64,000 bases of DNA. It comes from Harriotta raleighana (lineage: Eukaryota). A model generated the notes under the pieces. It searched no databases. It was not told the origin of the DNA and saw only the letters and a list, made by a program, of their open reading frames with translations. A program made the position numbers and the translations under genes. The stretch covers positions 14,809,560-14,873,559 of the forward strand of contig JBNZDD010013730.1 of the NCBI GenBank assembly GCA_050575255.1, written 5' to 3'. Below, in pieces: positions 1-62,200 of this stretch (position 1 is the stretch's first letter; each line of letters begins with the position of its first letter).

Positions 1-21
1 TGTTTAGTACTGTAACAAAGG

Positions 22-215
22 CAGAAATCGCTGGGAACACTCAGCAGGTTGGGCAGCATCTTTGGAGAAAGGAAAGTGAGTCAACGTTTCAGGTCCATGA
101 CCCTTCACTTTCTCCATGGCTTTCTCCATGGATGCTGCCTGACCTGCTGAGTGATCCCCGCGATTTCTGTTTTTGCTACAGATTTCCAGCACTTGCAATA
201 TTTTGTGTTTCTGTT
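22..215. mobile_element. Penelope-like palindromic terminal repeat (hammerhead-bearing family)
   Basis: cactcagcagg..ggcagcatc..ggagaaagg..tcaacgtttc arm followed by the inverted ctccatggatgctgcctgacctgctgagtg arm; related copies at ~6150-6380, 7923-8066, 22517-22610, 28120-28305 and 52595-52705. Confidence 0.7.
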
Positions 216-3900: not shown

Positions 3901-6900
3901 ATCAGATCTATGCTAAAGCCTCCACTTTGTTGGCTACAAGGTGAGCCAGAGTTGCAGCACCTCATTAGTGCATTCCACTGAAAAGGAGGAGATTGAAGTG
4001 CACACTTACCTTGGGGTAATTGGTACCAAGTTCATCAATGCCACAAAACTGGATCAGCTTTTCATATATGCTGAAAGAAAGAATATTGAGCTGTTAAACC
4101 TTACACCTTGGCATGCGTTAGCTTATACAAATCACACCACACTATCAACAACAGACCCATCCACCTCCCAACAACCAAACAGTTAGTCTTAAAGACTCCT
4201 ACAGAAAGTACANCCACCACCCAACACACCCATCCACCTCCCAACAACCAAACAGTTAGTCTTAAAGACTCCTACAGAAAGTACAGACCTGGGATTACGG
4301 AATTCCTTTTTGCGCTGAATGATATTATTCATGTCAAGTCCTTCGTGCAGTTTTCGGTCATACAGCTTCTGAATTTTCTCCTACAGAGACAGAGGACAGA
4401 CTTGGATGCGCATGCAAAGGGAACTAATAATATCGGTGGATGACAAAACACAAGGCAGGGAATCCTAAAATCTGTGTCATTCTGCAGGTATGTGTGCCTC
4501 ACAGTTGGTATGCATTTTCTATCCTTTTCAGGGATCACACGTGCATTTTCTGATGGGGCCACTGGATCGGAGACAGAAATCCTGACTGATAACTCTCTCC
4601 TTAGCTCAGACACGAAAGCCAATTGCAGGACTTCTGCTCTAACTCAGACCGGGATCAGTTAGCTGGTCAAAGATCTGGAATCAAATCTGGACTTTTCTTG
4701 GTCTGTGCGATCCTGTCAGAGCCACATACTAGTGAGGAACAGTTTTTTCTTTTTTAAAAAGAAATTGAATATGGGAAGAAAAACAAAGTAGAAATTGCTC
4801 AACACTAAAGAAGGTTTAATCACAGGAAATCCTGGAGTATGCCTTTAATTTTTGCAATAGAGGCTACACCCCAGAGCCTTGTCAACCTCTAAGTTAGCTG
4901 AGTTGGCAAAGAACCAATTTTGAAGGTGGGTCTGTATTTGGTAATCCCACATAATCAACATATACATTCCCTGCAGTTCTGCAGGTGAATCTCTCACCTC
5001 ACCACAGAGGATAAGAGCTGAGATAGGTTGGGGGGTTAATGAGAGAGGTTGGGGGCTGGAAAGTGGGGAAGTGGTTGAGAGAAGTAATCACTCTGTATTT
5101 CCTTCTGCTTTGGGATACATGAAGGTTGGGTGTGTGTTGTGAGCAGGGATGTGTCTGTACAGTCTATAGCAGTATGAGCAAGTCACACCTGGCTAAAAAA
5201 TTCCTCACCAGTGCCCAATCCATTACTCACAATAAATAATGCAGCCTCAGGCACTGGATGTGTTATTGCAGGAGAAGCAGACAACTAGACTTGTTAGAGC
5301 AGCATCAATCACTCCATAATAAGCAGAGTTCTACTTGGTAGAGTGGGGACTATTCACACCTACATTGTAAACACCCAGCATATAAAATCAATGTAAGAAT
5401 TTTTCTAATGATCAAGTTTTTCATTTCTGTGAAGTTGGTTTTAACATAAGTGTTTTAATTTAGTTTTAGGCACTTTGCCCTTTGTCTCAAGATCCAAATT
5501 CATATGTTGCTTTTGCTACTGAACTGCACAGAGTTAACTCTAGTTTATGCTGAGTTATCTGAACTCGACTGTCCAATGATGTCAGTTCTCTGGAAGTACT
5601 TCTACGGGTGATGGAAAAATCAGTCATGATTCCCATTCCCAACCGTTCTCCAGTGATTGCTGCATACAGCTAACTTACATCTAACTTAAACAATTTACAT
5701 TTACACAGAGTAACATCTTGGTGCACTTTAAAGAGACGGTAGATACTGAGTAGGGTGCGGGAATGCAGTTCTGAAGAGTCAGATTTAAGGGAAGCTTTTG
5801 TATACAGATGGAGATTGGCATGACATGGACAGTTGATTCAGGGAGTTCTAGAGGGTGGGGCTCAGTGGCTGAATGTGTGGCCATCCATGATGGGGCAGAG
5901 GAGGCAAGGAAGATGCAGGAGGTCCATGTGTACTGAGCGGAGAGGAGAGCAAGAAAATATGGCTGGAGAAGATAACAGGGTCAGAGAGGAGCAAAGCCTT
6001 AATTTGTAATGGAGGATGAGAATCATGCAGTCGATCCGCTGGAGAAAAGGGAGCCAGTGAATGCAAAGGGCATGTGAGGCTAAAACCGAGGCTGAGGTTT
6101 AGTTGAGCTGTAGCTTGTGGATTTACAGAAGCCTGAAAGAAGGTCACCTGAACAAAAACAGAAGTCGCTGGGAAAATTCAGCAGGTCAGGTAGCCTCTGT
6201 GGAGAAAGGAACAGGAGGTCAACGTTTTGGGTCATCTCAGTTCTGATGAAGGGTCATGGACCTGAAACATTGACTCACTTTTCCTTTCTCCATAAATGCT
6301 GCCTGACATGCTGAGTGTTCCCAGCGACTTCTGTTTTAGTTTCCGATTTCCAGCATCTGCAGTATTTTGCGTTTTGGTATTTGAACAGTCAAGTTGGGAG
6401 GTAATGCAGGCTTATTAGGAAGAGGCAATGGTTAGATTAATGCCCAGACTGCCTTCAAATATCTGATAATGCAAACAAACAGTAAAAGGAGAGAAAGCGT
6501 TGGAGAAGTATGTATTATCAGATATTTGAAGGTAGTCTGGCCCATGGACTGGGCAAAGTGACTTGTACCTGCAAATGGTTGGAGCATCTACCCGGAGGCT
6601 CTGGAGGGATTTTAATGTCGTCTGGAGACATGTTTCTTACTTTCTCCGAAAAAGAAGCTACATAAGAGAAGATGTACATCAGCACAATGGGGGCACACAG
6701 CGGAGAAACAAACCCAGCATCCTGTGTATTGACCCATCCTAGAGCAACCCTGGGACTTACGCTCGTTCGATCACTGTCCCCCCCCAATGTGAAATGCTCT
6801 ATATAAATGTAATTAAAAAAATTATTATAATAATAATCCATGCATTTGTTGTAGAGCTAGACATCCCAAACACATCACAGAATACACTGTCAGGTGAACT

Positions 6901-9900
6901 GACTGTATATTTTGTGGATGAAATGCGGTAGTCAGTTGTGCACAGCAGTGTCCCACAAACAGTCGTGGATTGAGATGACCAATTTGTTATTATTGTTTTT
7001 TTGAGGGATTACTGAATCTTCATTTCGCCCGCAAAAATACAGAACTGCACTTTGCAGAATATTCTCGGAATTGCTTTGAGATGTCTAGAAGAGGTGATCA
7101 CAATATCAAATACAGATTATTATTTTTTGCTTCTCCTGCTCCAAGTATAAAAACCCAACACACACCCAGATCTGATCTTTTTAAATGAATCCCACATTCC
7201 TTAGATGGTCCCACTCTCGTGTCCCCCACCCGCTGAGTGAGTCACTACAGACATCCGCCTGGAACAAGGACCATCTTTGGTCATGGAAGTAATTACTGGA
7301 GCCACACTGGGCAATTATGGGATTTGAATGAAAATAGTGAATGAATTGCTGACACCCTTGGGAGAAATCGCTGGGCAATTAAACAATTTTTCGAAAGACT
7401 ACCCATAATTTACTGATATGCGTAAACCATTGGCATTTTTGTATCAGTCTAGGATCAGAAGAAGCACTTTTAATTCTCCTCTTGTACTTCTACCCAGCAT
7501 TTCCTGGGGAATAAGTAATTAATGTGAATCATTTCCAATGTGTAATCAATCCAATGATGTTGTTTGGCTTGCCTAAGGATTGTGGTAAATTTTGAGCCCT
7601 TCCTATTTTTGTGGAATACATATGGAAGAAATGCGAATGAAGAGGGGATAGAAGGGAGAATTTTCAATGAATTCCACTGGCGAACAAAACAACAACAAAA
7701 TTACATTTGTATATGGCCTTTCACGTCAGGAGGACGTCCCAAGGCGCTGGACAGTCACTGCTCCAGACCCAACCTGAAGACAGGGTTGGGGGGCGAGGAG
7801 TTGCCGATGGGTCCATTAAAGAATAGTCTTGAGGCGAGACCTGAAGGAGGCCAGGGAGGGGGCGAGGTGGAGAGATCTCGGGGTAGAGTTCCAGAGGTTG
7901 GGGGCAGAGTGACCGAAGGCTNTCAGTTCTGATGAAGGGTCATGGACCTGAAACATTGACTCACTTTTCCTTTCTCCATAAATGCTGCCTGACATGCTGA
8001 GTGTTCCCAGCGACTTCTGTTTTAGTTTCCGATTTCCAGCATCTGCAGTATTTTGCGTTTTGGTATTTGAACAGTCAAGTTGGGAGGTAATGCAGGCTTA
8101 TTAGGAAGAGGCAATGGTTAGATTAATGCCCAGACTGCCTTCAAATATCTGATAATGCAAACAAACAGTAAAAGGAGAGAAAGCGTTGGAGAAGTATGTA
8201 TTATCAGATATTTGAAGGTAGTCTGGCCCATGGACTGGGCAAAGTGACTTGTACCTGCAAATGGTTGGAGCATCTCCCCGGAGGCTCTGGAGGGATTTTA
8301 ATGTCGTCTGGAGACATGTTTCTTACTTTCTCCGAAAAAGAAGCTACATAAGAGAAGATGTACATCAGCACAATGGGGGCACACAGCGGAGAAACAAACC
8401 CAGCATCCTGTGTATTGACCCATCCTAGAGCAACCCTGGGACTTACGCTCGTTCGATCACTGTCCCCCCCCAATGTGAAATGCTCTATATAAATGTAATT
8501 AAAAAAATTATTATAATAATAATCCATGCATTTGTTGTAGAGCTAGACATCCCAAACACATCACAGAATACACTGTCAGGTGAACTGACTGTATATTTTG
8601 TGGATGAAATGCGGTAGTCAGTTGTGCACAGCAGTGTCCCACAAACAGTCGTGGATTGAGATGACCAATTTGTTATTATTGTTTTTTTGAGGGATTACTG
8701 AATCTTCATTTCGCCCGCAAAAATACAGAACTGCACTTTGCAGAATATTCTCGGAATTGCTTTGAGATGTCTAGAAGAGGTGATCACAATATCAAATACA
8801 GATTATTATTTTTTGCTTCTCCTGCTCCAAGTATAAAAACCCAACACACACCCAGATCTGATCTTTTTAAATGAATCCCACATTCCTTAGATGGTCCCAC
8901 TCTCGTGTCCCCCACCCGCCGAGTGAGTCACTACAGACATCCGCCTGGAACAAGGACCATCTTTGGTCATGGAAGTAATTACTGGAGCCACACTGGGCAA
9001 TTATGGGATTTGAATGAAAATAGTGAATGAATTGCTGACACCCTTGGGAGAAATCGCTGGGCAATTAAACAATTTTTCGAAAGACTACCCATAATTTACT
9101 GATATGCGTAAACCATTGGCATTTTTGTATCAGTCTAGGATCAGAAGAAGCACTTTTAATTCTCCTCTTGTACTTCTACCCAGCATTTCCTGGGGAATAA
9201 GTAATTAATGTGAATCATTTCCAATGTGTAATCAATCCAATGATGTTGTTTGGCTTGCCTAAGGATTGTGGTAAATTTTGAGCCCTTCCTATTTTTGTGG
9301 AATACATATGGAAGAAATGCGAATGAAGAGGGGATAGAAGGGAGAATTTTCAATGAATTCCACTGGCGAACAAAACAACAACAAAATTACATTTGTATAT
9401 GGCCTTTCACGTCAGGAGGGCGTCCCAAGGCGCTGGACAGTCACTGCTCCAGACCCAACCTGAAGACAGGGTTGGGGGGCGAGGAGTTGCCGATGGGTCC
9501 ATTAAAGAATAGTCTTGAGGCGAGACCTGAAGGAGGCCAGGGAGGGGGCGAGGTGGAGAGATCTCGGGGTAGAGTTCCAGAGGTTGGGGGCAGAGTGACC
9601 GAAGGCTTGCCCGCCAATGGTTGGGCGGGTGGGTCAGGGGACATGGAGCAGGCCAGAGCCTGCTGAACGGAGAGGGTGGGCAATGGGATAGGAGGTCACA
9701 GATGTAGGGTGGGGCGTGCTTGTGGAGGAATTTAAATGTGAGGACCAGGATCTTAAAACGATTAATAAGTTAGTAATCAGCCATCTACAAAAGTAATATC
9801 TTGAGAAATAAATAGACATTATCAACAATTTACAATCTAGCAAAAATAAAGCGTTCTTCATATTGACTAACATCTCAGAATACTATTGTGTGCAAAGGGC

Positions 9901-15900: not shown

Positions 15901-17755
15901 TCGCCTCCGAGCGGTTCTCTGCCCCCCACCTCCACGAATCCCCCCGCCACCGATCGACTCTCTGTCCCTCACCTCCCCGCCCCCGATCAACTCACTGCCC
16001 CCCACCTCCCCGAATCCCCCCCACATCCGAGCAGCTCTCTGTTCCCTCCCCCCCCACCTGCCTGCCGCTCTCCCCGATTTCTCTCTGCCTCCCTCCCAGG
16101 CTGCCCTGATTTTGCCCCTGATTCGCCCTGGGTAGTAGGAGAGGCGAGAGCAGGAAGTGTGGGGGGAGGTGGGAGAGCAACAAGAGCGGGGAGAGGCGGG
16201 AGGAACAAGGAATGGGCCAGCCAGCTATAGCCTGCCTCAGTAGGTACCTTGCATCAGATGTGCTGGTGGCTTGAGATGGATAGCCTGCGACTGGATTCCC
16301 CTAACCTTTCCTTTTCCCATTACTTCTTAAGCTTCTCCAACGTGATTTCGTTGAGTGCGTAGTTTCCCAGGAGCGTAACCCCCGCAATCGGTGAGGGTTA
16401 ACTGTACTTAAAAGAATGCACCAAAATTGTAGAACAAGTTGACAAAAGTCCAATCTTGGTCTCACCAAGAAGTTTTTCTTTACTCAGAGGATAATTACCA
16501 ACTAAAACAGGTTGCAAGAACGGATAGTCGAGGATAACATGCTGAATATATATTTTTTAAAAACATTTGAAGCTGTGATCGGAGGAAGATATAAGGTGAC
16601 ACCTCCCTGGTCATGCAAGTTTAGGGCAGAGCTTAAATGTACAAAGGAAAGATACAGAGTGCTGTATAGTCTCACACTAACACACCCTCAAAAGCAGAAA
16701 TATCGCAAAGAACAGTCTGAGGTTTTGGAGAGATTGGAAACATTTGACTAGTTTGGAACTTTAGTTAAGTCTGTTTATGATATATGCAGAATACAAGAAT
16801 CAGATTTTGCACACTAGTCCGTGGCCAATTGCCATAAACTCTTCATCCACAAATTATTTTAAAAAAACTATAATAAAAAATTGGTCATTTCAATCCACAA
16901 CTGTTTGTGGAACACTGTTGTGCTCAATTGGCTGCTGCGTTTCACCCACAAATATACAGTCAATTCACTTTACTGTATATTCTGTGAAGCGCTTTGAGAT
17001 GTCCAGAAGACGTGAAAAGCGCTATATCAAAATGCAAGGATTATTATTAGTATTATAAGCGCAGATTATACAAGTGTAGAATGGGAAATTCTCTTCCTGA
17101 AATAAGAAAGATTTTCCCTTTGATTTGGGAACAAATATGTTGACTCTGTGTACAGAATGAAAACTGAACTTGCTTTTTGCAGCCATACTCCCCCCCCCCC
17201 ACCCACCCCCTTTTCCCCGCCATTTTTTACGTACCAACTAGCTCCTGGGGATTCTTCTTTTCCACATCAACAATTTCCTGAAAGAAAAGAAAACACTTCA
17301 GTCAGTGGACAGACTGGATGGAGTCCATTCATCCAACATTGCTACATAACACAGTAGGGAAGAGATACATCCAGCAGAGTGTGTGACTGAGATGACAGTA
17401 TTGGTACTGTACTGTAATAGACTGTATCCAGTACTTGAGTGAAAATGGAACAGACCAAAATCATGTTTTCTGGCACACTAAGTAATATTTTAATAACCCA
17501 TAGTAGCAGGGCTTTTGATGTGAAGTCTGGTCTTGGGAAAGGAGAGAGAGAAGAAAGAGTATGTATGTCCATGAATTAGGTAAGTCCATGAGGCTACTTA
17601 TAGATGGAAATAATTATGACAAAGACTTTTCTGGCACAGAATGGTTTGAGATTCTGGAAAACAACAACTATAACCACACGAATAAATGGACACAAGTGTT
17701 TATCCAGTCACAAAACAGTAGAGGAATTCATTCTGAAACCACAGCACCTGAGCTT

Positions 17756-20700: not shown

Positions 20701-23700
20701 TGCAAAAAACATCATATGGAGACTTGACCTGAAGTGCCAGTAGCTAAGTGCCAATCAGTAGAGCTATAGGAGCAGGCGTTCGTAGGAGATGGATGTTGTA
20801 CTACATGGGTTTTACGGGCAAACCCAGACATGATACTGTCTAATCGGATTGTAAGACACGTTCCTGCTCGATCAGCACAGGAGACTTCACTCCACTTTTG
20901 AGCACTTTGAGATGAGCCTGCATTCACTTGCAGGTCAATACATGCACTTCAGTACGTTAGCACGGGAATGACTGAACAACTTCAACACTGAACAGCATCT
21001 CATCGATTGCAGTGTTCAATCTAGCTACAGCCCCATGTACCACACAGCTGCCTTATGGTTCAGCCATGGGGTTGTGCTGTCTGGTTACTTCCATTTCCTG
21101 TCTGACAATTTTGGAGACATTTTGTTGATAAAATCAAAATGCTTGAATCTTTTCCGAAAAGAATGTTGCAACAGTCCATTTTGGAATGAATGATGCGTCC
21201 CGTATGGTCAGATGGCAAGAGATTTAATTCAGATGGGACTAGATAGAAAAAGCTGCAGCTTTGAGGGAGTATGTGAGCACTTACTAGCAACAAGAGTTGG
21301 TGGAATCTGACCACATGCCCAATCAAAAAAGCTCTTTAAGTAGGAAACGATTGGGAGGAGAGTGAGTACCGCTTGGAGATCAACTCCCACCCCAACAATC
21401 CTTGAATTTTATATAGCTCCTGTAGCCCCCACCACCAACATTAAAGGTACAAAGGTTCCATGGTTTCCTGTAGCTCAATGGTTAGAGCCTTGCAAGCGAA
21501 AGACTTGGGTTAATTTCCAGGCAGGATGAATCCTTGGGCAAGTTACCTTACTCAACACGCCTGATAATGATCCCCCAAGAAAAAAAGAAAAAATTTGGTC
21601 ATTTCCATCCATGACTGTTTGTGGGACACTACTGTGCACAATTGGCTGCTGTGTTTCATCCACAAAATATACAGTCAATTTACTTTACAGTATATTCTAT
21701 GAAGCGCTTTGAGACGTCTAGAAGACAAGGTCTATATCGAATGCAAGGATTATTATTATTACATTATCAAGCTCAAGGATTGCTAGTAAAAGAAGTTGAC
21801 ACCATAAAGTAGAAGAACCATGAATTTGAAGTAGGAGCACAAATGGTATTCATAAAAATGGGCTGCTCTCATTGCTTCTCAGACCTCTGCTGGAAGGAGG
21901 ATCCATTGAAAGCAAAGAGAATCCAGGACCTGGCACTCACTCCATTCAGCTACAAAATAATCAGCCATAAGACTTTACAATAAATACAGTGAAGCACTCA
22001 AGAGCGGTCATCCAAAGTGAAAGGTTGCTAACTACATCAAATGCAAGGATTAATCAGCAGTTAAGAACTGATTTCTAGGAAGAGTGGTTGACACAGGGAT
22101 AATGGAGTTAATTAAGAAACAGCTTGATATTGAAAAATAGTGTTGGCATTCTGGAGAAATTACATCAAATTGGCTATATTCATCTGAACCTCTCTGGTCT
22201 TGTGAGATAAAGATTAACCTAACCTCGGGACCCAGTGCGTGACTGACCGAAGAACAAACTAGCCTTTTCTGATAATCCTGAATCGTTTGCTTTTTCAATC
22301 ATACTGTGCTGAGTTAGGCCCTAACATACATTGTCCAGTAAGTTACTGCAGCTGTTACCAGCCACACCTACAGCAACTATTCTCCAGCATTTTCCAGTAC
22401 ATAGCTGCTGGCAATGAGGTTTGTTTCAGCTTGTATAGGTCGGGCAGGCAAGGAGAGGCTCACAGGTAATCATACTCTGTACTTTTTAGGGATAAACACA
22501 TATAGACACAAACAATTGAGTTCTGACGAAGGGTTGTGGACCCGAAATGTTGACTCATCCAACTTCTGTGTGTTTTTCAGATTCCCAGCATTTGTAGTAT
22601 TTTGTATTTTGTTTAGACACAAACAACATTCACTGAAGAAAGTTCCCTACAAAATACTTATGTGCATTTTGTTCATGCACTAGATGCCATGGAAAGAGAT
22701 TTTCCAGTAAATCTTGTGTAGCTCAAGACATTTGAAAAAAAAATTTCAAGACATTCTCCAGATTTTTTTTTGACATGAAAGGTACTACAGTATTATCAAA
22801 AGCAAGGATTGTTATTAAAGAAGTTTACATAGGTTCTGTACAGTATAGGAACTGTGAATTTGAACTAAATGACTATTGTCCTGTGGGGAGGGATTTTAAT
22901 GCGCAGTTACATCCACTAATTGAAGATTCATTGTTTGTCAAAGATACTTTACACTTTATTTCAAATTTACATTATATTCTGTGAAGCGCTTGAGACGCCT
23001 AGAAGACGTGAAAAGTGCTACATCAAATGCAAGGATTATTAATATTATTATATCTATCTTTCCTGATGACTTACTATCTATGCTGTTAAATAACATTGCT
23101 GGTTCTAGAGGTTGCGAAACCAACATAAGAAAGTAGTTTCCTCACAGCCTCCAGAGAAGCACAATGAACACTGACTCCCACAGAGCAATTGCTATTTCTC
23201 CCGAGTCACGGGTGAAGCTGCAGAGATCAACGTGGGATGTTTGAATCACAAATTTTTATTGACTTCACCAATCCTTTCAGAAGGTTCAGCTGTCATAAGA
23301 ATCTGGCCCAAGTTATCCAGAGAGGAGTGAGGTTGCAGAAGACCAGAGAAATGGGGAGGTGCTAGGAGGGTTTATAGGTGAGGGTGATTACTTCTAAAGC
23401 TCAAAGAGCACAACAATAAAATCTCCTACAATACAATCAATGCTATTAATAAATTATTAACCTACTTAGATCAATTTCCGGTATTAACCCTGCAGGTCAT
23501 TCTTAATCACCTCAATTTCTTCCCACCATAACATCCCAGTGTTCCAAGCGGTATTTCTCTCTCACGAGCTTCTCCACACACACTCCTCTGTTTACCTAGC
23601 AGTAATTAGGAAGCTGGTTGTTAATTGATTCAGGGTTTGCTTTCCCTGAATCAATTAATAAACCCTCTAAAAACAGTAATAATTTGGTCACTCAATCCAC

Positions 23701-26700
23701 AACTGGCTGCCGTGTTTCACCCACACAAATATAGTCAATTCACTTTGCAGTATATTCTGTGAAGCACTTTGAAATGTCTCGATGGTGATAAGGCGCTGTA
23801 GCAAATGCAAGATTATATAACTTTACAAGTGGCCACTGTATGAGAATGTCTCATACTTTACTGATATCTATTGAGGAGTGTGCGATTGAGTAGTTTGCTG
23901 GTGACTCACTTTATGGCTGTTTGTGGGATTTTGCGCAATTGGCTGCCTCATTTGTCTACCCAATACACAGACACTATTCTTCACAGGAAAATCCAACAAA
24001 GCTTTGAGACATAACGATAAGGTGACCATGACCTAAATCAAAATACAAGGATTATCAATATATTCAGACTTTGTACAATGTATTGTACCATAAAAAATAG
24101 ACTGTGGAAAACATTCACTCCCTGTTTCTGGAACATGATTGAGCACGAATCAGCTGCTGCATTCACCCACAAAATACAGTCTCTACCCTTTACTGAACTT
24201 AGTGAAGCAGTTTGTGACACTCCTGAGTTTAAAGGTGCAAGATGTTTATTGTAATTCAAACTAGCGAGAGTGTGAAAAGTCCTAGATAAGATTGTGGGAG
24301 CTGCTACTATCAACAGTAGAATGACAGACGAGTTCTGCTCCCAGAATCTATAAAGATTTGCCAATCCATTTCACACAGAAGGACTGTATGAAGCCCAGAC
24401 ACTGCCATCTACTGGAACAAACTGTTGAAATAGAGTCCACTAGCATACAAACAGGAGTTCAACACGGTACAATAATTAAGTCCACAAAATCCCAACCAGT
24501 CATAAATTAGCACAGTTGCTGGTCAGTGTTTCTGCATTCACTGCATGTAGTCATGTGCCATTACCTCTTTCTGCACACTATACAACCTTCTTTTTACTGT
24601 TCAAGACTTTCCCAATCAACAAAATAACATAAGAAAAGCTAGGCTCAAAAGGATCACTTCACCCATTCAATTTCACCCCTTCAGTAACAGCCTGTAAATA
24701 GGTTTTGAACTGTTTTGTCTCTTCCATTGCTAATTATTCCAAATATTAATTCATTCTGAGTAAAGTAAATTTCAAGTCTGCACTAGTCAGATGTTTAATG
24801 GTCAATTAATGTCTATCCTGGGGGGGGCGGGGCAGGGGAAGGAAATCATGCTCTTTGGGATTGAGCTAGCTTCAAGGTGACACACCTGGCAATGGAATAT
24901 CAGAATCAAATCGATCCTCTGTTGTAGCCTTGGTAGTCTGACCATAGTAAGGCAGGTCCACACTATTGCAGGACACTATTGATGAAGGACCAGTCAGCCT
25001 GATTTGTCAACAGTTCATATAGCTGGCCAGTGTCTGCAGGCTAGGATTGTGTGCTTTCAGTGATTGTCTAAATAAAACTTTCTCATAGTTCAAAGTATAT
25101 TTGTGCAGTTAATAATCAATGTAAAAAGTGTAGCCTCAGAAAGACAGTAATCCAAAATCTGAAGCACCTGAAGATAATACTCAGTTGAAAAATTATGCAT
25201 TTTCTAAAGATTGACACAGCTTCTAAACCTCAGTCCCTTTACCAATACCTAAGAAGGAACACCAAATGTTTGCAAAACACAAATAAATCAAGAGAATGAA
25301 TCAATCTCTGCAGGACGTTGAAATATTGAAATATTGCCCAGATTCTCAATAAACAGCTGAACAATTCTGGGATTCTTGTTAAATGCGGGGATGTGATGTA
25401 AGAGACTAAATGAATCAAATCTTACGCATGTCCAATCTATAGGAAAACACATTGTGCTGATGATATTAGTGCAAGAAAATGCAAGGATTATTAGTAAGAA
25501 TCCTGATTACTTGCTTCCTGTTTGTTCTTCCTGTGGTTCCATTATATGCTATATGTTACACATAAGCTGCACAAAAGATCAAATACTGAACTCATTTGGA
25601 ATGAAGTTATCAGGACAGTGTTGTACTGTGTGATCAAGTACTGCCTCAGATGCCGGTCAAAATTCTCTCTCAAGATCTACTAGCCTGCTTTATGAACAGA
25701 AAGAGTACATTTTCAAAATTTACAACGCACTGCTTCCCATTCGTTTCCACTGCAATTGTAAAAAGAACAGGAAAGGGTATAGGAAAATTGATTGTAACTG
25801 CCCACTTTGCATGCAATATGTGTGTATTATGCACTTTCAGAGTTTGTGTGGCTCATTGGTTCCATGCTTGTTCCTGTAGTTTTGTTTTCAACAAAAAAGT
25901 CTTTGTCTGGGATGTCTTTTCAATGTGAAGGGTGTTAAGTGTAACTATGTTGCTGTTGTTATCATACTCTGTTAGATTTAAATAGTACCTTTACACCATC
26001 CATTTCCAGCAGCTCAGTTTCTGAATCTTCACCTTCCTACAAGACAAGAGTTTTTATAAGGTTACATTATGTTGATGGCCTGACTGCTGCACTCTGCAGA
26101 TCAGAACTACTCTCTTCAGACAAATGACAGATAGCATGAGACTGTTTCACACTGTCTACTAAATAATGCACATGCTCAAGTTTCCAGTTTTATCACACCA
26201 TTCTATTCCCTCACATATCACTTACCAGTTGGCTGCTGCTGTCGTCATCCTCGTCTTCATCCACCTCGTCCGTCTCCTCCAGCCGGCTGATATCATCCTC
26301 TCCATATCCGGCTGACACCAGCCCTCCTTTCTCTTCTGCAAAAGAAAAAACAGAACTATTCACTGCTCTCCAGACTCATCTGGTCCGTGCAAAATTCTTA
26401 TCTAATCTCAGAATAATAATAAGAATTTGATTACTGCATTTGGATATTGCGTTTTTTATATCTTCTAGACGTCTCAAAGCTCTTCACAGAATGTACTGTA
26501 AAGTAAATTAACTGTACATTTGTGGTCGAAACGTGGCACCCAATTGCGCACAGCAGAGTCCCAAAAACAGCAGCTTCCCAAAAACAGCAGAGTCCCAAAA
26601 ACAGCAGCTTCCCAAAAACAGCAGAGTCCCAAAAACAGCAGCGTCCCAAAAACAGCAGAGTCCCAAAAACAGAGGCGTCCCAAAACGGCCGTGGGTTGAA

Positions 26701-27191
26701 GTGATTAAATTATTATTGTTTTGTTTTTGAGGGATTATTAGTATTCTTCTGCTCATCACTGGAACAAGTAATTTATAATGAGAATCTGGAGTTTATCCTT
26801 TGTTATGTGAGGTTCCCATTTTATGGACCCCGACTGTACATAGCACCGCAAACGTCGGTTCCTACTTTTACATCCTATATGCAGTACCTTGTAGTTATTC
26901 TATTGTATCTGTATTGAACTTCATTTTACAGCAGCAGTCAACCAGATACACAACTAGTCAAACTCGAAACTTCCAGCAGAGCCTCAACCCACTCCTTGCC
27001 GCCCAAGGGAGCCGAGTGCAGGCCCGAAAAGCCGCGAGGTGATTATTTTCGCCCACCCCAAATCACGCCACCTAACACACAGCACCTCACCTCACCCCAC
27101 CCCGGTCCCTACCTGGTTCGACGTCCGAGTCGGGCTCCGAATCGCCCGCATACGCGGCGAGGGACGACAAGACATTCCGCTTCGCCGCCAT
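1000..27191 (-). CDS. SAP30BP: SAP30-binding protein, complete 11-exon CDS (900 nt, 299 aa)
   Basis: Exons with GT-AG boundaries and consistent phases: 27191-27113 ([26 protein letters not shown]), 26335-26226 ([20 protein letters not shown]..), 26036-25989 ([16 protein letters not shown]), 17277-17235 ([14 protein letters not shown]), 8343-8255 (duplicate at 6657-6569; [29 protein letters not shown]), 4380-4289 ([19 protein letters not shown]), 4070-4010 ([20 protein letters not shown]), 2744-2693 ([17 protein letters not shown]), 2254-2196 ([19 protein letters not shown]), 1854-1770 (IEFVTRTK..), 1181-1000 ([27 protein letters not shown]). Peptides closely match vertebrate SAP30BP as recalled. 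Confidence 0.97.
2798..3720 (-). mobile_element. Degenerate L2-clade LINE, 3' part of ORF2 (RT C-terminus) plus 3' tail
   Basis: Frameshifted peptides [39 protein letters not shown] and [18 protein letters not shown] are typical of L2 ORF2; ends in the gcgccttgggacg..gatgtgaaag tail. Confidence 0.85.
6150..6380. mobile_element. Penelope-like repeat with minimal hammerhead ribozyme core on + strand (6235-6277)
   Basis: cagtt CTGATGA a gggtc atg gacct GAAA catt gactca, embedded in the inverted-repeat element. Confidence 0.7.
6237..9607. repeat. 1686-bp near-perfect tandem duplication including SAP30BP exon 5
   Basis: 6237-7921 equals 7923-9607 apart from a few substitutions; a single n sits at the junction (7922). 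Confidence 0.95.
9372..9757 (-). mobile_element. L2 LINE 3' fragment (partly duplicated at 7686-7921)
   Basis: Reverse complement of cagcgccttgggacg..cctgacgtgaaagg..atacaaatgtaattttgttgttg tail plus upstream L2 3' sequence. Confidence 0.8.
15427..16404. mobile_element. Non-autonomous Tigger/pogo-like (Tc1-mariner) DNA transposon
   Basis: TA|CAGTTAATCCTC ... GAGGGTTAACTG|TA terminal inverted repeats with TA duplication; a related copy starts at 47290 and runs into the N gap. Confidence 0.8.
19331..19530 (+). mobile_element. Tigger-like transposon end fragment
   Basis: TA|CAGGCAGTCCTC.AGTTACGAC start with repeated GTTACG subterminal motifs; ends at an nn break. Confidence 0.55.
22517..22557 (+). 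ncRNA. Minimal type I hammerhead ribozyme motif (Penelope-type, decayed copy)
   Basis: tgagtt CTGACGA a gggtt gtg gaccc GAAA tgtt gactca. Helix I UGAGUU/GACUCA, core CUGANGA..GAAA, helix II GGGUU/GACCC, palindromic helix III (family consensus ACGU). Confidence 0.65.
26551..26685. repeat. 17-bp minisatellite (8 units, alternating variants) expanded inside a SINE
   Basis: cagcagagtcccaaaaa alternates with cagcagcttcccaaaaa / cagcagcgtcccaaaaa. Confidence 0.9.
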
Positions 27192-27355: not shown

Positions 27356-47808
<20,453 letters not shown>

Positions 47809-50261: not shown

Positions 50262-53200
50262 TCACATGGTTGGGTGAGATGTAGTCATGTCCAGGATCAT
50301 CCCAACTGTGTGACACATCTCTCTGGCCTGAATGAAGAAAGTAAAATGATAGTTGTCACATCAAGGACATAATTGCCTTCCCCCAGTTTTTCCCGTCTGC
50401 ATTGCCAATGTGCTAGTGCACGCTGGGATACACTTCCACAAGTGCTGCCTCTTATCACAACCGAACCCAATCTTGTCTTTCATGGCAAGTAGCTTTTCCA
50501 ATTGGAGATTGGTTTAAAAGTCCAGAAATGCTATAATCAATTGTTGTATTCTATCCTTGTTCTTATTGAGACATTCAAACTGAGCAAAGTCCTGAGGATT
50601 GAGCTCAGGGCCAGTCTGGACTGGTCAGCTCGGTGGAGTGCCACAGGATATTGGTGAGGGGCAGTGGGGGGGAATTGGCAAACATTCTTTAAAATCACTG
50701 ACTGCTTTAGTCACCTACTGAGTGATTTGAAGTTGATAATTAAAGACCATGAACAACGGACGTTCTTGCCCGGTTTAACTTCACTGTCAACAGCAGTTCC
50801 CTAAAACCACAGTGATTCTGAGTTAAGCAAGTTTTCCTTATAACTTGATAAAGTAACATATCCATTCATCTTACACCCATGCCCTAAAATTCTCAGAATA
50901 TTATTAATACAGAAAAATCTCAGGTTAATACATGTTTCCCGTAACGCAAGTCATTTTTGCTACAAACCCAGTTCCTACCTTTCTCAGTTCAAAGGAAAGT
51001 GCCTGGGAAACGCTGAAATTAATTTCCACCCCAGGCAATTTTGAGGCATCCGATGGGCGTAAAGTACGCATTCTCATGATTTCTTTCAGTGGGATTGTGA
51101 TGATCTGGTCCTGTAAAACATTGTGCAGATCTGTGTAAATGCGTTTCACAATACCAACATCAATAAAACTCTTAAAAATTCTGGATTCACTCTATATAAT
51201 AGGCAGTACAGGAATTTGGCCATAATCTGTCGTTGTGTGTCGTGACTGCCTTTGCACTGCTTGTGATCACAGCCAGCACTACTGCAGTATATGTTATGTA
51301 ATTTCCATCTTACTACCCACACCCCCCCACCCCTGATGTATAGGAAAGGCTTTAATAAAGACAGATGGCTGAGATGCTGGTCATGTTAATGTTACTGTAC
51401 CTTGGTATCCTTGTTTATGACTTTTAGATATTGGTCATTGATGGCCACGATGCAGGGCGCTGGAAATTCAGGGTTACTGGTCTTCTTCACTGAGAAAATA
51501 TTGTAACCAAACAGGTTCATGCTGCTCACTGCGGCTGAGTGGGTGAAAAGGAAAAGGTAAGTCTTGATGCCTATCCAGAACACTACGACGAATGTTGTGT
51601 GGAGTCTCCTTACACTGCAATGACTGTCCCAACTATTGATTGTGTTGGGATTGCCTATCCTTTGGGCACCATCTGGACTGCCTCAGCCATTGTGTTAGGC
51701 CTAGTCCACCTGATCTGTGAGGCTGTAAATTATATTTAATCTCGAGGTTCTCCACTTCGTCTGACCTCCCACACTCCCTAATCCCAATCCCCCCACCCTT
51801 GCACGGGTGCAAATCATTGACTGTCCAGCGCCTCGGGGGCGTCCTGACATGAAAGGCACAATATAAATGTAATTTTGTATTGTGTATAATTTAGCTTATA
51901 ATTGAATATGAAATACTGTCTGCCTGAAAGATATGTCCTTTTGTCATTCAGTCCTGGTATATCCTACAAACCCAATTTAAGTAGGCCATTCTACCTCTTA
52001 GCCCATGATTCTACAAGGACTGCCAGACGATGAAAAAGTATTATTAGCTGTAACCTATAGATTTTATGTTCAATATCAATGGGCTTTCATACTATCTTTG
52101 ACTCGGCACATCCAGCGTGGAGAGCGCTATATAAATCAAAGTTGTTGTTGTTCTTGTAAGATCCCATTCCCAAGAGCAAGGAGACTTGCCATTTGGTGAC
52201 TGANATCCGGCGTGGAGAGCGCTATATAAATCAAAGTTGTTGTTGTTGTAAGATCCCATTCCCAAGAGCAAGGAGACTTGCCATTTGGTGACTGAGATGA
52301 CGGACATGGTATTTTCCCAGTCTGATGAAACGTATTGGGTGGNAGATGACGGACATGGTGTTTTCCCAGTCTGATGAAACGTATTGGGTGGATGCCAAAA
52401 GCTTTCCACACTGGAGAGAAAACAGTAGTCATTCATATCAGTCTCCTGGGCATCCTTGAGAGGTCATTTACAGAACAACATTGTCAGTCCTAAGAGCAGG
52501 TCACACGCTCATTCACTGAGGCTGTAACGAGGAAAATGTATGAAAAACCTCGGAAATGGAAATACGAATTGCAGCATTTAATTTATGGCAGCATCTATGG
52601 AGAAAGGAGAGGGATGCATAGATGCTGCCTGACCTGCTGAGTGTACCCAGACAAAAACAATCTGTTTTTGTTTAGATTTCCAGCATTTGCTGTATTTTGC
52701 ATTTTGTTAGCATTTAATTCATTAATGTATTGAAACCATCAATGTGTAGCTGTGACCGTGTAGTTGATTCACAGTGCATTGAATTTTGTGTCAAATTCAT
52801 AGTAATCATCCTTNTTGCTGACCGTGTAGTTGATTCACAGTGCATTGAATTTTGTGTCAAATTCATAGTAATCATCCTTGTGTTTGGTTTAGCGCCTTAT
52901 ATCGTTGGGACACGTCAAAGTGCTTCATAGCATATACTGACTATTGACGGTATATTTTAAGGGAGAAATGTGAAATTAAATTGCACAATTAAATTAAGCT
53001 TTATTGGATCATCTTATTGAGCCAAACAATGGCAATGAGAGGTTCAAGACACATTACAGACATTGTACACAAACTGCAATACCATAAGATACAACAGCTG
53101 AGTCAGTCGATCTTTCCCAGATCCAAACAGACATGACATAAAGAGAATTAAACTTCTATCTAACTATACCCTTACCACATAAACCATGGTTAGCATTGGT

Positions 53201-56200: not shown

Positions 56201-59200
56201 TTTGCTGCTGTTGTTGTTCATCTGTCAGAATCATTTTTGCCCTGCATCCTTTAGTTACTTGCTACTGTTATGAATTGTTTCTTCTGATGCTGGACTTTTC
56301 CCTCTTCGTCTATTCTACCTTTTCAATTTAATCTATGCAAATTGACTTAATTTAAAATTAAATTAGACAAATTAAAATAAAGTAAAAATTAATTTAAATT
56401 TTGTTTAATTTGAATTTAAAAGACTAATCATCTGTGTAAATTGATTTCATTTAAATTGGAGATGAGGTACAGATCAGCCATGATTTAATAGAATGGCGAA
56501 ACAGGCTCAAGAGGCAGAATGGTCTATTCGTGTTCTTCTATTTACACAAAAGCATTTCTAAAATTTAAATACCTTACCAACACTCACTGTCACCAAAAAA
56601 AAACCCTTCATCTTTTTAGAGTGAACTAAGGAATTTGGAGCAGAATAAATGGCAGTGGTTTTGTGAGGAGTTTGGCAAATAATTTGTGTTCACATCTGCA
56701 GGTAACAGATGACAACAAGCAGGAATTACAGTAATGGGTTACAGCACAGCAGGTGGATGTAAACAAAGGAGATGAAGGTTTGCTTCAAATAAAGAATGAA
56801 CACCTGAAAATGCATTGTCTTACAAATACAGGTAGATATTTGAAATAGTTACATCAACATCATCGCCTTGACTAAAACTTGGGTTATCCTAGGTGACACC
56901 TTCCCCTCGATCGAGGCCATACCTCCCAATTCAAGATCCTGGTCCTCACATTCAAAGCCCTCCACAGCCTCGCCCCACCCAACATCCGTGACCTCCTAAC
57001 CCCCTAACAACCTACCTGCCCCTTCCGCTCAGCAGGCTCTGGCCTGCTCCACGAATGACAGAAGAGCCTTCAGCCACTCTGTACCAGTGTAATTTTGTTG
57101 TTGTTGTTGTTACAACTCAGATCGAGTAATAAAAATGATCATTGTATTTGATACAGTGCTTGAAACATCACAGAGCTTTTAACAGATCATTTCTGTCTAA
57201 TGAAGCCATCAAGCCATAATGGGCAAAAGATTTGTAATGTTCCGCCCACAAAACATAGTCAATTGAATTTACAGTAAACTCTATTCTGTGAAGTGCTTTG
57301 AGACATTTTAAAGATGTGATAAGGCACTATATTAAATGCAAGGATTATTATTAGTGTATTGCAGAAAAAAAATCCTTTATTAGAGATCCTACAGAAGACA
57401 TCATTATAAATCAATGCACTGGCTTTGTGTTTACAGCACTCACATGGATGGGTTGGGTCCTGCTCCCATCAATTTGTGCTGACAGGCTGCAAGAGTGACA
57501 ATCAACTCTTCCATCTCATTGGTGTTGTTTGGCAATATAAAGTTACCTTCGAGGTATGTAGGAAGCAACTAAAAAGCAATAAGAGCACCAGGTTAGGTTA
57601 CAGAAAGCAAATGCGCAAGTCATTAAGGAGGTGCAGGTACAAAGTTCTCGACTTACCTGATTATAATGCACATCAATATACAGGTTATTGTAAAAATGGA
57701 AAGGCTCTTTCCACGTTATTCGGCGAAAGAATATATTGACTGAATTGTCATCCACCATGAAATCAAAGAGATATTCCTCCATTCTTATCGGTCTCACAAT
57801 ATGCCCTGTAAAGAGAAAAGGTGGACAGCTGTGATATTTATTTACTAGATAGATATTTGGGGACAAAAATTTGCAGGGCTATGTGGAGAGAGCGGGTTGC
57901 GGGATTAATCCCAAAGAGCCAGCACAGACACAATGGGAGATAGAATGGCCTGCTTCTTTTCTGTATAATAGTATGATTCTATGATGTGGAGCTCCTGTGG
58001 CTCAGTGGTTAGAGCACTCGCCTTACAAGCATTTCAATCCACGATTGTTTGTGGGACGCTGCTGTGCTCAATTGGCTGCCACGTTCCGCTCACAAATACA
58101 CAGTCAACTCACTTTACAGTATATTGTGAAGCGCTTTGGGACGTCGATAAGATGTGAAAAGCGCTATATCAAATGCAAGGATTATTATGATTATGTGAAA
58201 GCTATCCTATTTCTGCATAGGGAAGATGATCGTAAGATGAACCACACTCCGTTCTTCACCTGCTCTTTTTCGTCAATGAACAGATCTCTGTTGGGGCTTC
58301 TTGATCGGTCACATACCTTTCTTCTTCTCAGCAAAAATAGAAAACTCCTTGGATTCCTCAAAGTCGTGAATCCCTAGCGTAGAACAAATCTCTAGCACAA
58401 CCTCACTCGCTACCTAGAACCAAACGCAAACACATTAAGCTGATTTATCTGCTCCAAACCAGGTTCCCAACAGCTCTGTGACAATTATTCTCTTCCGGGT
58501 TAAGCGACATGTTCATTTTCTGGTAACATACAAAATTTCAGTGGCCTTTCTTTTAGTGTCAAATATCAATTTGCAATTATATAGCATCTTTCATGCCAAG
58601 AGGACATCCCTAACCTCTTCAGATCTTAGTTCCCGTAGCAGATCTCACAATGGAACTTCCAGTTAGAATTCAAAAGCACCAATTAGTTGGGGCTGAGCTG
58701 AGTCATCCATTTCCATGCTGTACCTTCTTGGTAAATCCCACCAGAGTATTACACTCTTTAACACATATATCCCCTTTAAGGGTTTAACACTCAATTATAC
58801 AACTGATAAAAGAGATAGAAAACTCTTAACGTCCTTTGATTAGTTTGCCACATTGATTGTGGTACGGCTATTCCCTGCTATTCTCCCTGCACAGCCAAAG
58901 CTATAATGGAACATTTTTACCTACAAAACACAGTCAATTCACTTTACAGTATATTCTGTGAAGGACTTTGAGACCTCTCAATGATAAGATAAGCAAGTGC
59001 AAGTTTTATTATTAATAAATAATAATTATTAAATCATTAATAAAATTATTACCATTTATTATTAATAAGTGCTGCAAGGGGCCGTATGATGTCAAGTTCA
59101 CCATAAAAGTGCAATTCATTGTTATTACAGTGGAGTCCTTTAGCTCGGTGGTTAGAGCACTCGCCTTAAAGCGAGAGACCTGGGTTTAATTCTGGGCAGG

Positions 59201-62200
59201 GTGAAACCTTGGGCAAGTTTCCTTATTCCACACATCTGATAATAATCCGTGAAAAAATTTTTGGGGGGTTATTTCAATTCACAACTGTCTGTGGGACACT
59301 GCTGTGCACAATTGGTTGCCACTTTTCGCACACAAATATAGTCAATTCACGTTACAGTATATTCTATGATGTACTTTGCGACGTCTAGAAAATGTGAAAA
59401 GCACTATATCAAATGCAAGGATTATGATTATTATGCATTGGAGTGGCTTGCTCACAGGAAGAAAGAAGTATCCATGCCTGAATCCCAACAACAACAACAA
59501 AATTTTATTTATAGTGCACTTTTCACATCAGGAGGACATCCCAAGGCGCTGAAAAAAAAACTCTCCAGCCCTAGTTATGTAAACGTACCGAGAAGGATTT
59601 GATCTTGGCAGTGTGCTTCAACCCCCCAGGCAGTTCAATCACAACCCGCCGTGAACTTCGTCCTTTCTGTTGGACAAAAAGAGCACAATGGTTTAAAATG
59701 TGCACAACATTCAATGCTGACATGTAGTCAATGGTGAGCTCCGTGCCAGATAATCCGTAGCCTGATAATCCATCAAATGATGAAACTCCATCAGGAATAT
59801 TCAATGATCAAAACCCTGTGTAACTGATGAGCAACTAAATGTCAATGTTAAGTCTCTGATTCTCTGTACTTAATATCAGCGTTCCGTCCCTCGCTTTGCC
59901 TGCATTGGCCATTTTCCCTTTTCTCCGTGTCAGAGTGGTCAGTCACAGTGCTGCTTGGCACTTTCACTCACCATAATGGCATCCAGCTCCAGGTTGGATG
60001 GGAAGGTTCTGCGGCCTCCAAACTGTATTGTGCGGTGCAGGTTTTCCTCCGAGGCCTTGGCTACCTCTGTAAGAGGAAAGACACTTGGTATTTAGTAGCA
60101 GGAATGGAGCAGCATCTCTTGATGTCACCTCTGCAATATTATCCTTTTACCTTCCCCATGGAATGCAATGCTTTAACCATCCCATGTAAATGCTTCAAAT
60201 AAAGTGAGGGAATCCTCATCCTCCGCACTGTACCTTGGAAATTATGGGTAGGGTTGGAATTGATTTCCTGCAGGTATTTCAGGACAAAGGGTTTCAGGTT
60301 GATGGATATGCTGTGGAAGCCCAAGAATATGTAGAGTATCCGCCAGCCTCGGGTGCAGCTTTCTCTGTACAAAGAAATGAGTCACATCACATGAAAGACA
60401 GTGAATCAGAAAGGTACTGATCTGAAAGTTTTGTCATGTTGACTGTTTACAATAAAACCCCGTTTATCCATGACTCGAATAATCGGAAAACCCGTTCAAC
60501 AGCCATCTCAAAAAAAAGTCCCGATTCGATGAACCAGAAGTTATCCAGCAGAATGGTAAAGACCCATTTAATGAATGGATTTCCGCACGCGAGTACTGAT
60601 GCAGTTATATCGGTGGCCGCTAGTTGAGCCTAAAGTCGGGCTATTGACGTTTTTTTTAAAACTCACAATACTACCGTTTTTTTTAAAAATGCCGTTTTCC
60701 CGATTTTATTTTTCCTCCTTTGGCAGCCATTGTAGAAGTTAAGTATAAACAATAAAGTACTAATATAATATTCTGTTAGTATAGTATCTGTTGTTAGTGT
60801 ATTTAGTCTATTATTTATATAGTATTGTTCAACATTTACATGTGTATGTGTGTGTGAATACACTCACTCTCTCTCTCTCTGCAAGTCCAGTCTATTTGAT
60901 CAATTCAAAATACCTCGTAAGAAGGCTTCACAGTAATCGACCGCGCCTTCCCCCCGCTGAGGGTTAGCAGCGTGCGGATGGCAGCTTCCTTCAAAAAAAA
61001 ATTTTTAGCCAGAAAACCGTTTAACCGCCATTGGCCAGGTCCCATGGGTGCCGGATAAAAAGGGGTTTTACTGTACACTGTTGAAACTAAATAATAATAA
61101 TAATCCTTGCATTTGATATAGCACTTTTCATATCTTATCGACATCTCAAAGTACTTCACAGAATATACTGTAAAGTGAATTGACTGTATATTTGTGGGCG
61201 AAACGCAGCAGCCCTTCCACTCACATTTAAAGCCCAGTTCTGATCAAATTAATGTGCAGAGTTGACCGCACCCGAGGAGATGTATCAGTCAAAATTTGTG
61301 TGGAAAGTAGATTGTGTGGATCCTCCCGTGTGTAATGAATGGGTCTTTAGACTTTTTTTCTGTCTTTCCTATCTATGTACGCGATGCACGGTCCTGATTG
61401 TACATTCCAACACATCACTCCCTTCCACACTTGTCATTATAAAAAAAAATCCTTACATTCGATATAGTGCCTTATCATGCATTCGACACATCTCACCTAT
61501 AGTAGTAATCACCTTTAAAATCTTCCATGGCCTTGCCCCACCCTACCTTTGCAACCTCCTAACCCCCTACCAACCTGTCCGCTCCCTCTGCTCAGTGGGC
61601 TCCGGCCTGGTCCATGTCCTCCAAACCACCCACCCCACCACTGGCGTGCAAGCCTTTAGCCACTCTGCCCCCAATCTATTTAATTCCATCCCGCAATCCC
61701 TCCACTTCACCCCCTCTCTGACCTCCTTCAAGTCCTGCATAAGTCCTTCAAGTCCTCTTCGACGGTGCCATTGGCTACCTGCCTTCCCCTTCTGTCCCTC
61801 CACCCTCCCCGATGCCGACCCCTGCTCAGGCCTGAAACACTGACTTGGGACGTCCTCCAACATGACAGGCGCTATACAAATGTAATTTTGTTGTTGTTGT
61901 CTCAAAGCACTTCACAGGATTTGCTTTGTGGGCAAAACGCGGCAGCCAATTGCGCCCCACAAACAATCGTGGATTCAGTGACCAAATTATTATTATTCTT
62001 TAAGGGAATATTATCCCCGGAAAGTGATCCACCAATCAACTAACAACTGGGATCCTACCATGGCTTTCACAAGATCTATTCTCCAACTTTGTACAGCTCC
62101 TGTATTGTGTGGCATTTGTTAATCGGAGTCTGGCTCCCCAGGTTCTTCTCAACAGTCCCCAGGAGGAATACAAGAACCAAGATTAATTCTCTTCACTCAA

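Follow-up and report, generated by a model that had tools for sequence, protein, structure and literature searches.

The window analysed here is a stretch of 64,000 nucleotides from the genome of Harriotta raleighana (contig JBNZDD010013730.1). The initial annotation placed a minimal type I hammerhead ribozyme at 22517-22557, and this assignment holds: the letters and coordinates of the motif agree with the sequence, every invariant hammerhead core base is present, and the motif matches a structural descriptor. The motif opens a 98-bp insert (22516-22613) that lies between exact 13-bp target-site duplications (TSDs). Specifically, the locus contains the following features:

22503..22515, + strand: left TSD, 13 bp, with an exact copy at 22614-22626
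22516..22518, + strand: junction bases TTG, found in neither the read-through sequence of the element nor the TSD
22517-22522, + strand: TGAGTT, the 5' side of helix I in this copy
22519..22522, + strand: AGTT, the 5' strand of the 4-bp helix I of the family; A22519 is the putative transcription start
22523..22530, + strand: CUGACGA core (C3-A9; 22523-22529) and an extra A (22530) before G10.1, read from the sequence
22531..22543, + strand: helix II, 5 bp with a GUG loop; C10.5 is decayed to U, giving a U-G wobble
22544..22551, + strand: GAAA (G12-A15.1; 22544-22547), then UGUU (22548-22551); predicted cut after 22551
22552..22557, + strand: GACUCA, helix I on its 3' side; the next ~44 nt of intact copies are missing here (BLAST against natural copies)
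22558..22613, + strand: remaining pLTR end, with a ~36-nt Penelope-like element (PLE) 'tail' at about 22577-22613
22614..22626, + strand: right TSD

The type I minimal-hammerhead descriptor has three matches in the window, at 6243, 7929 and 22523, the first two of which lie inside one near-identical duplicate; 100 dinucleotide-resampled windows gave none (mean 0, maximum 0). An Rfam scan returned no hammerhead family at E<=10. The copy at 22517 has the core positions of PLE minimal hammerheads (C3-A9, G12-A15.1, U16.1 and H17), a helix II that begins with the G10.1-C11.1 pair, and the extra nucleotide after A9. In the predicted ensemble, pair probabilities are 0.54-1.0 for helix I and 0.8-1.0 for helix II.

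In this ribozyme both C10.5 and C15.2 have become U, two changes of the CpG type. Through the change at C15.2, the self-complementary ACGU now reads AUGU, and the computed duplex energy goes from -1.7 to +2.6 kcal/mol. The copy has lost the palindrome at 15.2-16.2 and is a decayed member of its family. Its lowest-energy monomer is predicted to pair G5-A6-C7-G8 with positions 15.2-17, an inactive fold, and the same fold is predicted for an intact natural copy.

Compared with intact copies by BLAST, the 98-bp insert lacks ~44 nt after the motif. It derives from the terminal repeat (pLTR) of a Penelope-like element, truncated at the 5' end and with an internal deletion. The junction bases TTG lengthen helix I from the 4 bp of the family to 6 bp at this locus. 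No retrozyme array is seen here; the locus is a solo insertion with a TSD, rather than a series of tandem hammerhead-bearing units. Taken together, the motif is very probably the minimal type I hammerhead of an endonuclease-bearing (EN+) PLE, carried in a stub that has a target duplication, an internal deletion and CpG decay and is probably inactive.

Other members of the family are present in the window:

9..209, no strand assigned: insertion with two inverted pLTR ends and no CUGA core; 11-bp TSD at 3 and 214
6147..6373, no strand assigned: insertion, inverted pair; the plus arm has the full core CUGAUGA, with ACAU replacing ACGU
7923..8059, + strand: nearly identical second copy of the 6237 arm, preceded by a single N at 7922
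28115..28300, no strand assigned: insertion, inverted pair with a truncated core
52587..52702, no strand assigned: insertion, short inverted pair without a hammerhead; 10-bp TSD at 52574 and 52710

The two sister copies cited in the initial annotation both exist. Near 77-106, the minus-strand copy retains GAAACGTTGACTCA and has no CTGA core; at 6236-6277, CTGATGA is retained, but the six bases before it are TCAGTT in place of TGAGTT. The arm at 7923..8059 is likely an assembly duplicate, which would make the same-strand pair 6243/7929 only apparent. The region 6237-9600 as a whole contains a tandem duplicate of 1,686 bp whose copies are nearly identical and meet at the single N (7922), likely an assembly artefact.

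The high copy number proposed earlier is borne out across the genome by exact counts and by a profile search. A 34-nt core pattern has 618 matches (control, 0), a loose core pattern 2,594 (control, 41), and a 32-mer downstream of the motif 2,851. Of the 2,594 loose-core matches, the first 100 belong almost entirely to one family and differ by scattered changes. In 600 kb outside the window, a profile search found 22 matches, ~17 insertions, which extrapolates to ~30,000 insertions from a non-random sample (200 kb beside the window plus eight chosen 50-kb blocks).

The family consensus is CCAGUU-CUGACGA-A-GGGUC-GUG, not the previously proposed UGAGUU-CUGAUGA-A-GGGUC-AUG. Upstream of the core, CCAGTT has 973 genome matches and TGAGTT 193; these counts rule out UGAGUU as the consensus and set helix I of the family at 4 bp, AGUU/GACU, with one U-G pair. 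For a sample of the family, 90 arms were chosen by the downstream pattern, with one that was too short dropped and duplicates merged. Position 7 is C in 37 of 48 arms and the first loop base is G in 37 of 59; the UGA (core) and AUG (loop) variants are products of CpG decay. The palindrome at 15.2-16.2 is present at the level of the family (C in 51/75 arms, G in 54/75), and the earlier claim that ACGU has decayed at its CpG is supported.

Forty-two of the 90 arms span the motif. The core is kept in 18 of these, helix II as well in 10, and ACGU in addition in 8. The catalytic CpG bases are mutated at rates near those of other CpG bases, G8 in 12/48 arms and G12 in 15/67. The catalytic G's together are mutated in 27 of 115 cases versus 21 of 58 for the loop G, a non-significant difference (p=0.10), and they may be under weak constraint.

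The suspected Penelope-like origin is supported by a master element with reverse transcriptase (RT) and GIY-YIG domains. The translation of a ~1.3-kb region that two copies share upstream of the motif contains RT motifs, a CX4CxxC linker and a nuclease of the GIY-YIG type, which has the pattern VYC..CSRC..YIG and internal cysteines. The RT is followed by a C-terminal GIY-YIG, as in EN+ PLEs, and the translations show one feature that defines the Neptune/Nematis clade. In Pfam, RVT_1 (E 0.016) and GIY-YIG (E 0.0025) are both below cut-off in these broken copies; in one scan of five pieces, three gave no match and one an unrelated DUF below cut-off. The RT piece had no match in another Pfam scan and none in a PDB sequence search. 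For the RT piece, 292 homologues reach E<=1e-10. Among the 120 of these that were listed, most carry PF00078 and 16 carry PF01541, and the best named homologues are shark proteins (64-67%).

The motif lies downstream on the same strand at 15 of 20 RT loci. [quoted passage not shown] Both terminal repeats of long copies contain the motif, ~150 nt upstream of the first ATG of the ORF and downstream of RT/GIY-YIG. The arrangement of a hammerhead-bearing pLTR on both sides of the ORF is assembled across loci, not seen within one intact copy, and the ORF is broken in every copy seen. Insertions have the inverted 5'-truncated partner, one-sided tail and TSD of EN+ PLEs; among 34 arms with an inverted partner, the tail is on one arm only in 22 and on both in none. 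At one inverted PLE pair, an adjoining ORF piece (L061:4952-5500) is unrelated and resembles a LINE ORF1 esterase.

At 7 distinct loci, two pLTR ends lie on the same strand at a distance of about 370-750 nt. At L217, L218, L224, L226, L231-L233, L234 and L237, ~200-600 nt of the ORF front end lies between the two ends, and several of the junctions cluster at CCCAG-like microhomology, consistent with template jumps or internal deletions. An amplified two-hammerhead derivative with one common junction was rejected, with only one genome match.

For the 90 arms, 33 of the 5' ends fall within -8..0 of C3, 15 lie further upstream, 3 are at the cut site, 38 are scattered inside the motif and 4 are at the anchor. 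The candidate rule that stubs start at the cut site is ruled out by the 3/90 count. Among 546 copies in which AGTT is not preceded by C, 287 have G at that position (background, 26%), and that G is preceded by T in 193 of the 287 (background, 37%). One position further out, T is again favoured (81 T versus 19 G in the first 100 of 120 copies listed). The same count disfavours a fold-back origin, in which TG is copied from the helix I partner and G is expected next. The bases TTG at 22516 are likely a cap-templated G and untemplated T's, judging from these junction sequences.

In 52 read-through copies examined, 29 have a CTTAAA motif; in 25 of these, TTAAA is placed 29-30 nt before the A (-30/-29). 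The sequence around this A agrees with the initiator consensus and with TATA spacing. The left edge of the stub at 22517 likely marks the start of the capped RNA of the element, as read from the DNA. Some junction additions look copied from the flank, possibly including TTG at 22516, the reverse complement of the final CAA of the TSD. At L319, L322 and L325, the junction is filled by short stretches copied from the flanking target in inverted or direct orientation, with an extra G after them. In one presumed-RNA contig set, members of the family were matched and no piece spanned the 22517 locus; such contigs cannot show RNA ends.

These ends suggest the following mechanism. The mRNA of the element would start at the A of AGUU, as inferred from the DNA junctions, which would make the hammerhead the first ~38 nt of the mRNA. 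Reverse transcription would have two alternative internal starts (the 'tail' ends), some 105-140 nt downstream, and from either it would proceed over uncleaved RNA to the cap, and add C opposite the cap and often untemplated A's. Once joined to the target, the short cDNA would give the stub at 22517, including the TTG junction and the fortuitous 6-bp helix I. Cleavage after GUU in an active element would require a ribozyme dimer or help from protein, and the making of stubs would not depend on it. Parts of this scheme have precedent: full-length L1 copies are reported to have an extra 5' G from capping (PMC11702581), and a lizard PLE to have an internal RT start, a tail, dispensable cleavage and an uncleaved RNA template (PMC11167929).

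On balance we favour, with somewhat better than even confidence, the proposal that the capped mRNA begins at the first base of helix I, that self-cleavage would remove the cap, and that the tens of thousands of stubs are run-off cDNAs extending from the internal RT start to the cap, with the cap-copied G and untemplated T's sometimes lengthening helix I, as at 22517. Several observations weigh against a capped start. About half of the non-C copies have no G, the pile-up of 5' ends covers 9 positions instead of one, with 38 of 90 arms ending inside the motif, and the upstream stretch also resembles a 3' splice site; the flank-copied additions count against it as well.

The same element could also produce such ends if the folded hammerhead hairpin were a strong RT stop and the junction bases were generic untemplated additions. 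The spread of ends over -8..0, with many within the motif, and the stable extended hairpin predicted for the monomer are consistent with this. However, a hairpin should halt RT at its 3' foot (+29..+33), where just 3 of 90 arms end, and not once it has been read through, and an intact copy with 60 nt upstream is predicted to be without the motif fold (pair probabilities <=0.04). The excess of G (287/546) and the TATA-like spacing (25/29) are also left unexplained, and we regard an RT stop as unlikely.

The 5' edge of the motif may instead be a 3' splice site, with TTGAG as a short spliced leader exon that completes the 6-bp helix I. An intron of this kind is known from Penelope of Drosophila virilis, whose end was mapped to helix I in the portion available of PMC4209133. 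Read-through copies have CCCCAG followed by TTCTGA, a branch-like CTAAT ~35-40 nt upstream, and pyrimidines, and TTG is the commonest addition (the 81 T versus 19 G above, in the first 100 of 120 listed). The copies viewed have no common sequence upstream of TTG. Moreover, in the parts of five long copies that lie outside the opening ~300 nt of the ORF, the sole TGAG-GT site (3/5 copies) is preceded by C rather than T and lies deep in the ORF. A spliced leader is accordingly an improbable source of the junction.

It is highly improbable that a ribozyme system that is active or retained by the host (a retrozyme or a domesticated hammerhead) operates at the 22517 locus, or across the dispersed family, and gives cleaved or circular RNA: the invariant core is intact and helix I has 6 bp at 22517, core, helix II and ACGU are kept in 8/42 unselected spanning arms, and 7 distinct loci have two same-strand pLTR ends, but 22517 is a single copy with a TSD and no partner nearby, its AUGU duplex is unfavourable (+2.6 kcal/mol), its predicted monomer mispairs G5-G8 with 15.2-17, G8 and G12 are mutated in 12/48 and 15/67 arms, the one shared two-motif junction has a single genome match, and single min-HHRs were uncleaved in vitro in the portion available of PMC4209133.

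A 2017 paper is said to describe dimeric PLE-associated hammerheads. A literature search of main texts, partial in coverage, listed no paper that deals with hammerheads of shark PLEs or with a cap signature in PLEs. Min-HHRs occur in the pLTRs of metazoan PLEs in thousands of copies per genome, with weakly active dimers and inactive monomers (Cervera and De la Pena 2014, PMC4209133, in part). The family resembles them in its CUGANGA/GAAA core, extra nucleotide before G10.1, G10.1-C11.1 pair and 4-bp helix I, and also in its loopless helix III, palindromic 15.2-16.2, thousands of dispersed truncated copies and opposite-strand pairs. It differs in its 5-bp helix II and in the decay of the 22517 copy. 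In the accessible text of that paper, cartilaginous fish are not named among the hosts. The motif is ordinary, and adds one genome to the class described in 2014.

As far as the available parts of the sources go, the inverted truncated partners, one-sided tails and TSDs match those of EN+ PLEs of the Neptune/Nematis type (Craig et al. 2021, PMC8557442; Arkhipova et al. 2013, PMC3846280), whereas stubs of about 100-240 bp make up most of the insertions here. The two internal RT starts that give the tail, the uncleaved template and the lack of cut-site ends are shared with Anolis Poseidon (Frangieh et al. 2024, PMC11167929, in part), whose ORF begins within the hammerhead itself; in our family the ORF begins ~150 nt downstream. 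The linker sequence suggests that the clade differs from that of Poseidon. Non-LTR retrozymes, reported in one chondrichthyan genome, have a type I hammerhead related to PLE pLTRs, as in our family, but consist of tandem hammerhead units (PMC7229834; bioRxiv 10.64898/2026.07.22.740005; both in part), unlike the solo stub with a TSD at 22517.

The junction record bears on what PLE hammerheads do. If the ribozyme is indeed the first ~38 nt of the capped mRNA and uncleaved RNA is copied, its likely role would be control of the cap and of translation, and not making the template for insertion.

Repeats of other kinds are also found in the window. Two very abundant short repeats end in simple repeats (e.g. 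1537-1654, 16877-17045 and 29970-30138). tRNA-like heads at 21464-21529 and 59134-59204, both weak tRNA matches, lie near short repeats that are likely tRNA-derived SINEs, and a 17-bp minisatellite is contained within a repeat copy at 26516-26702.
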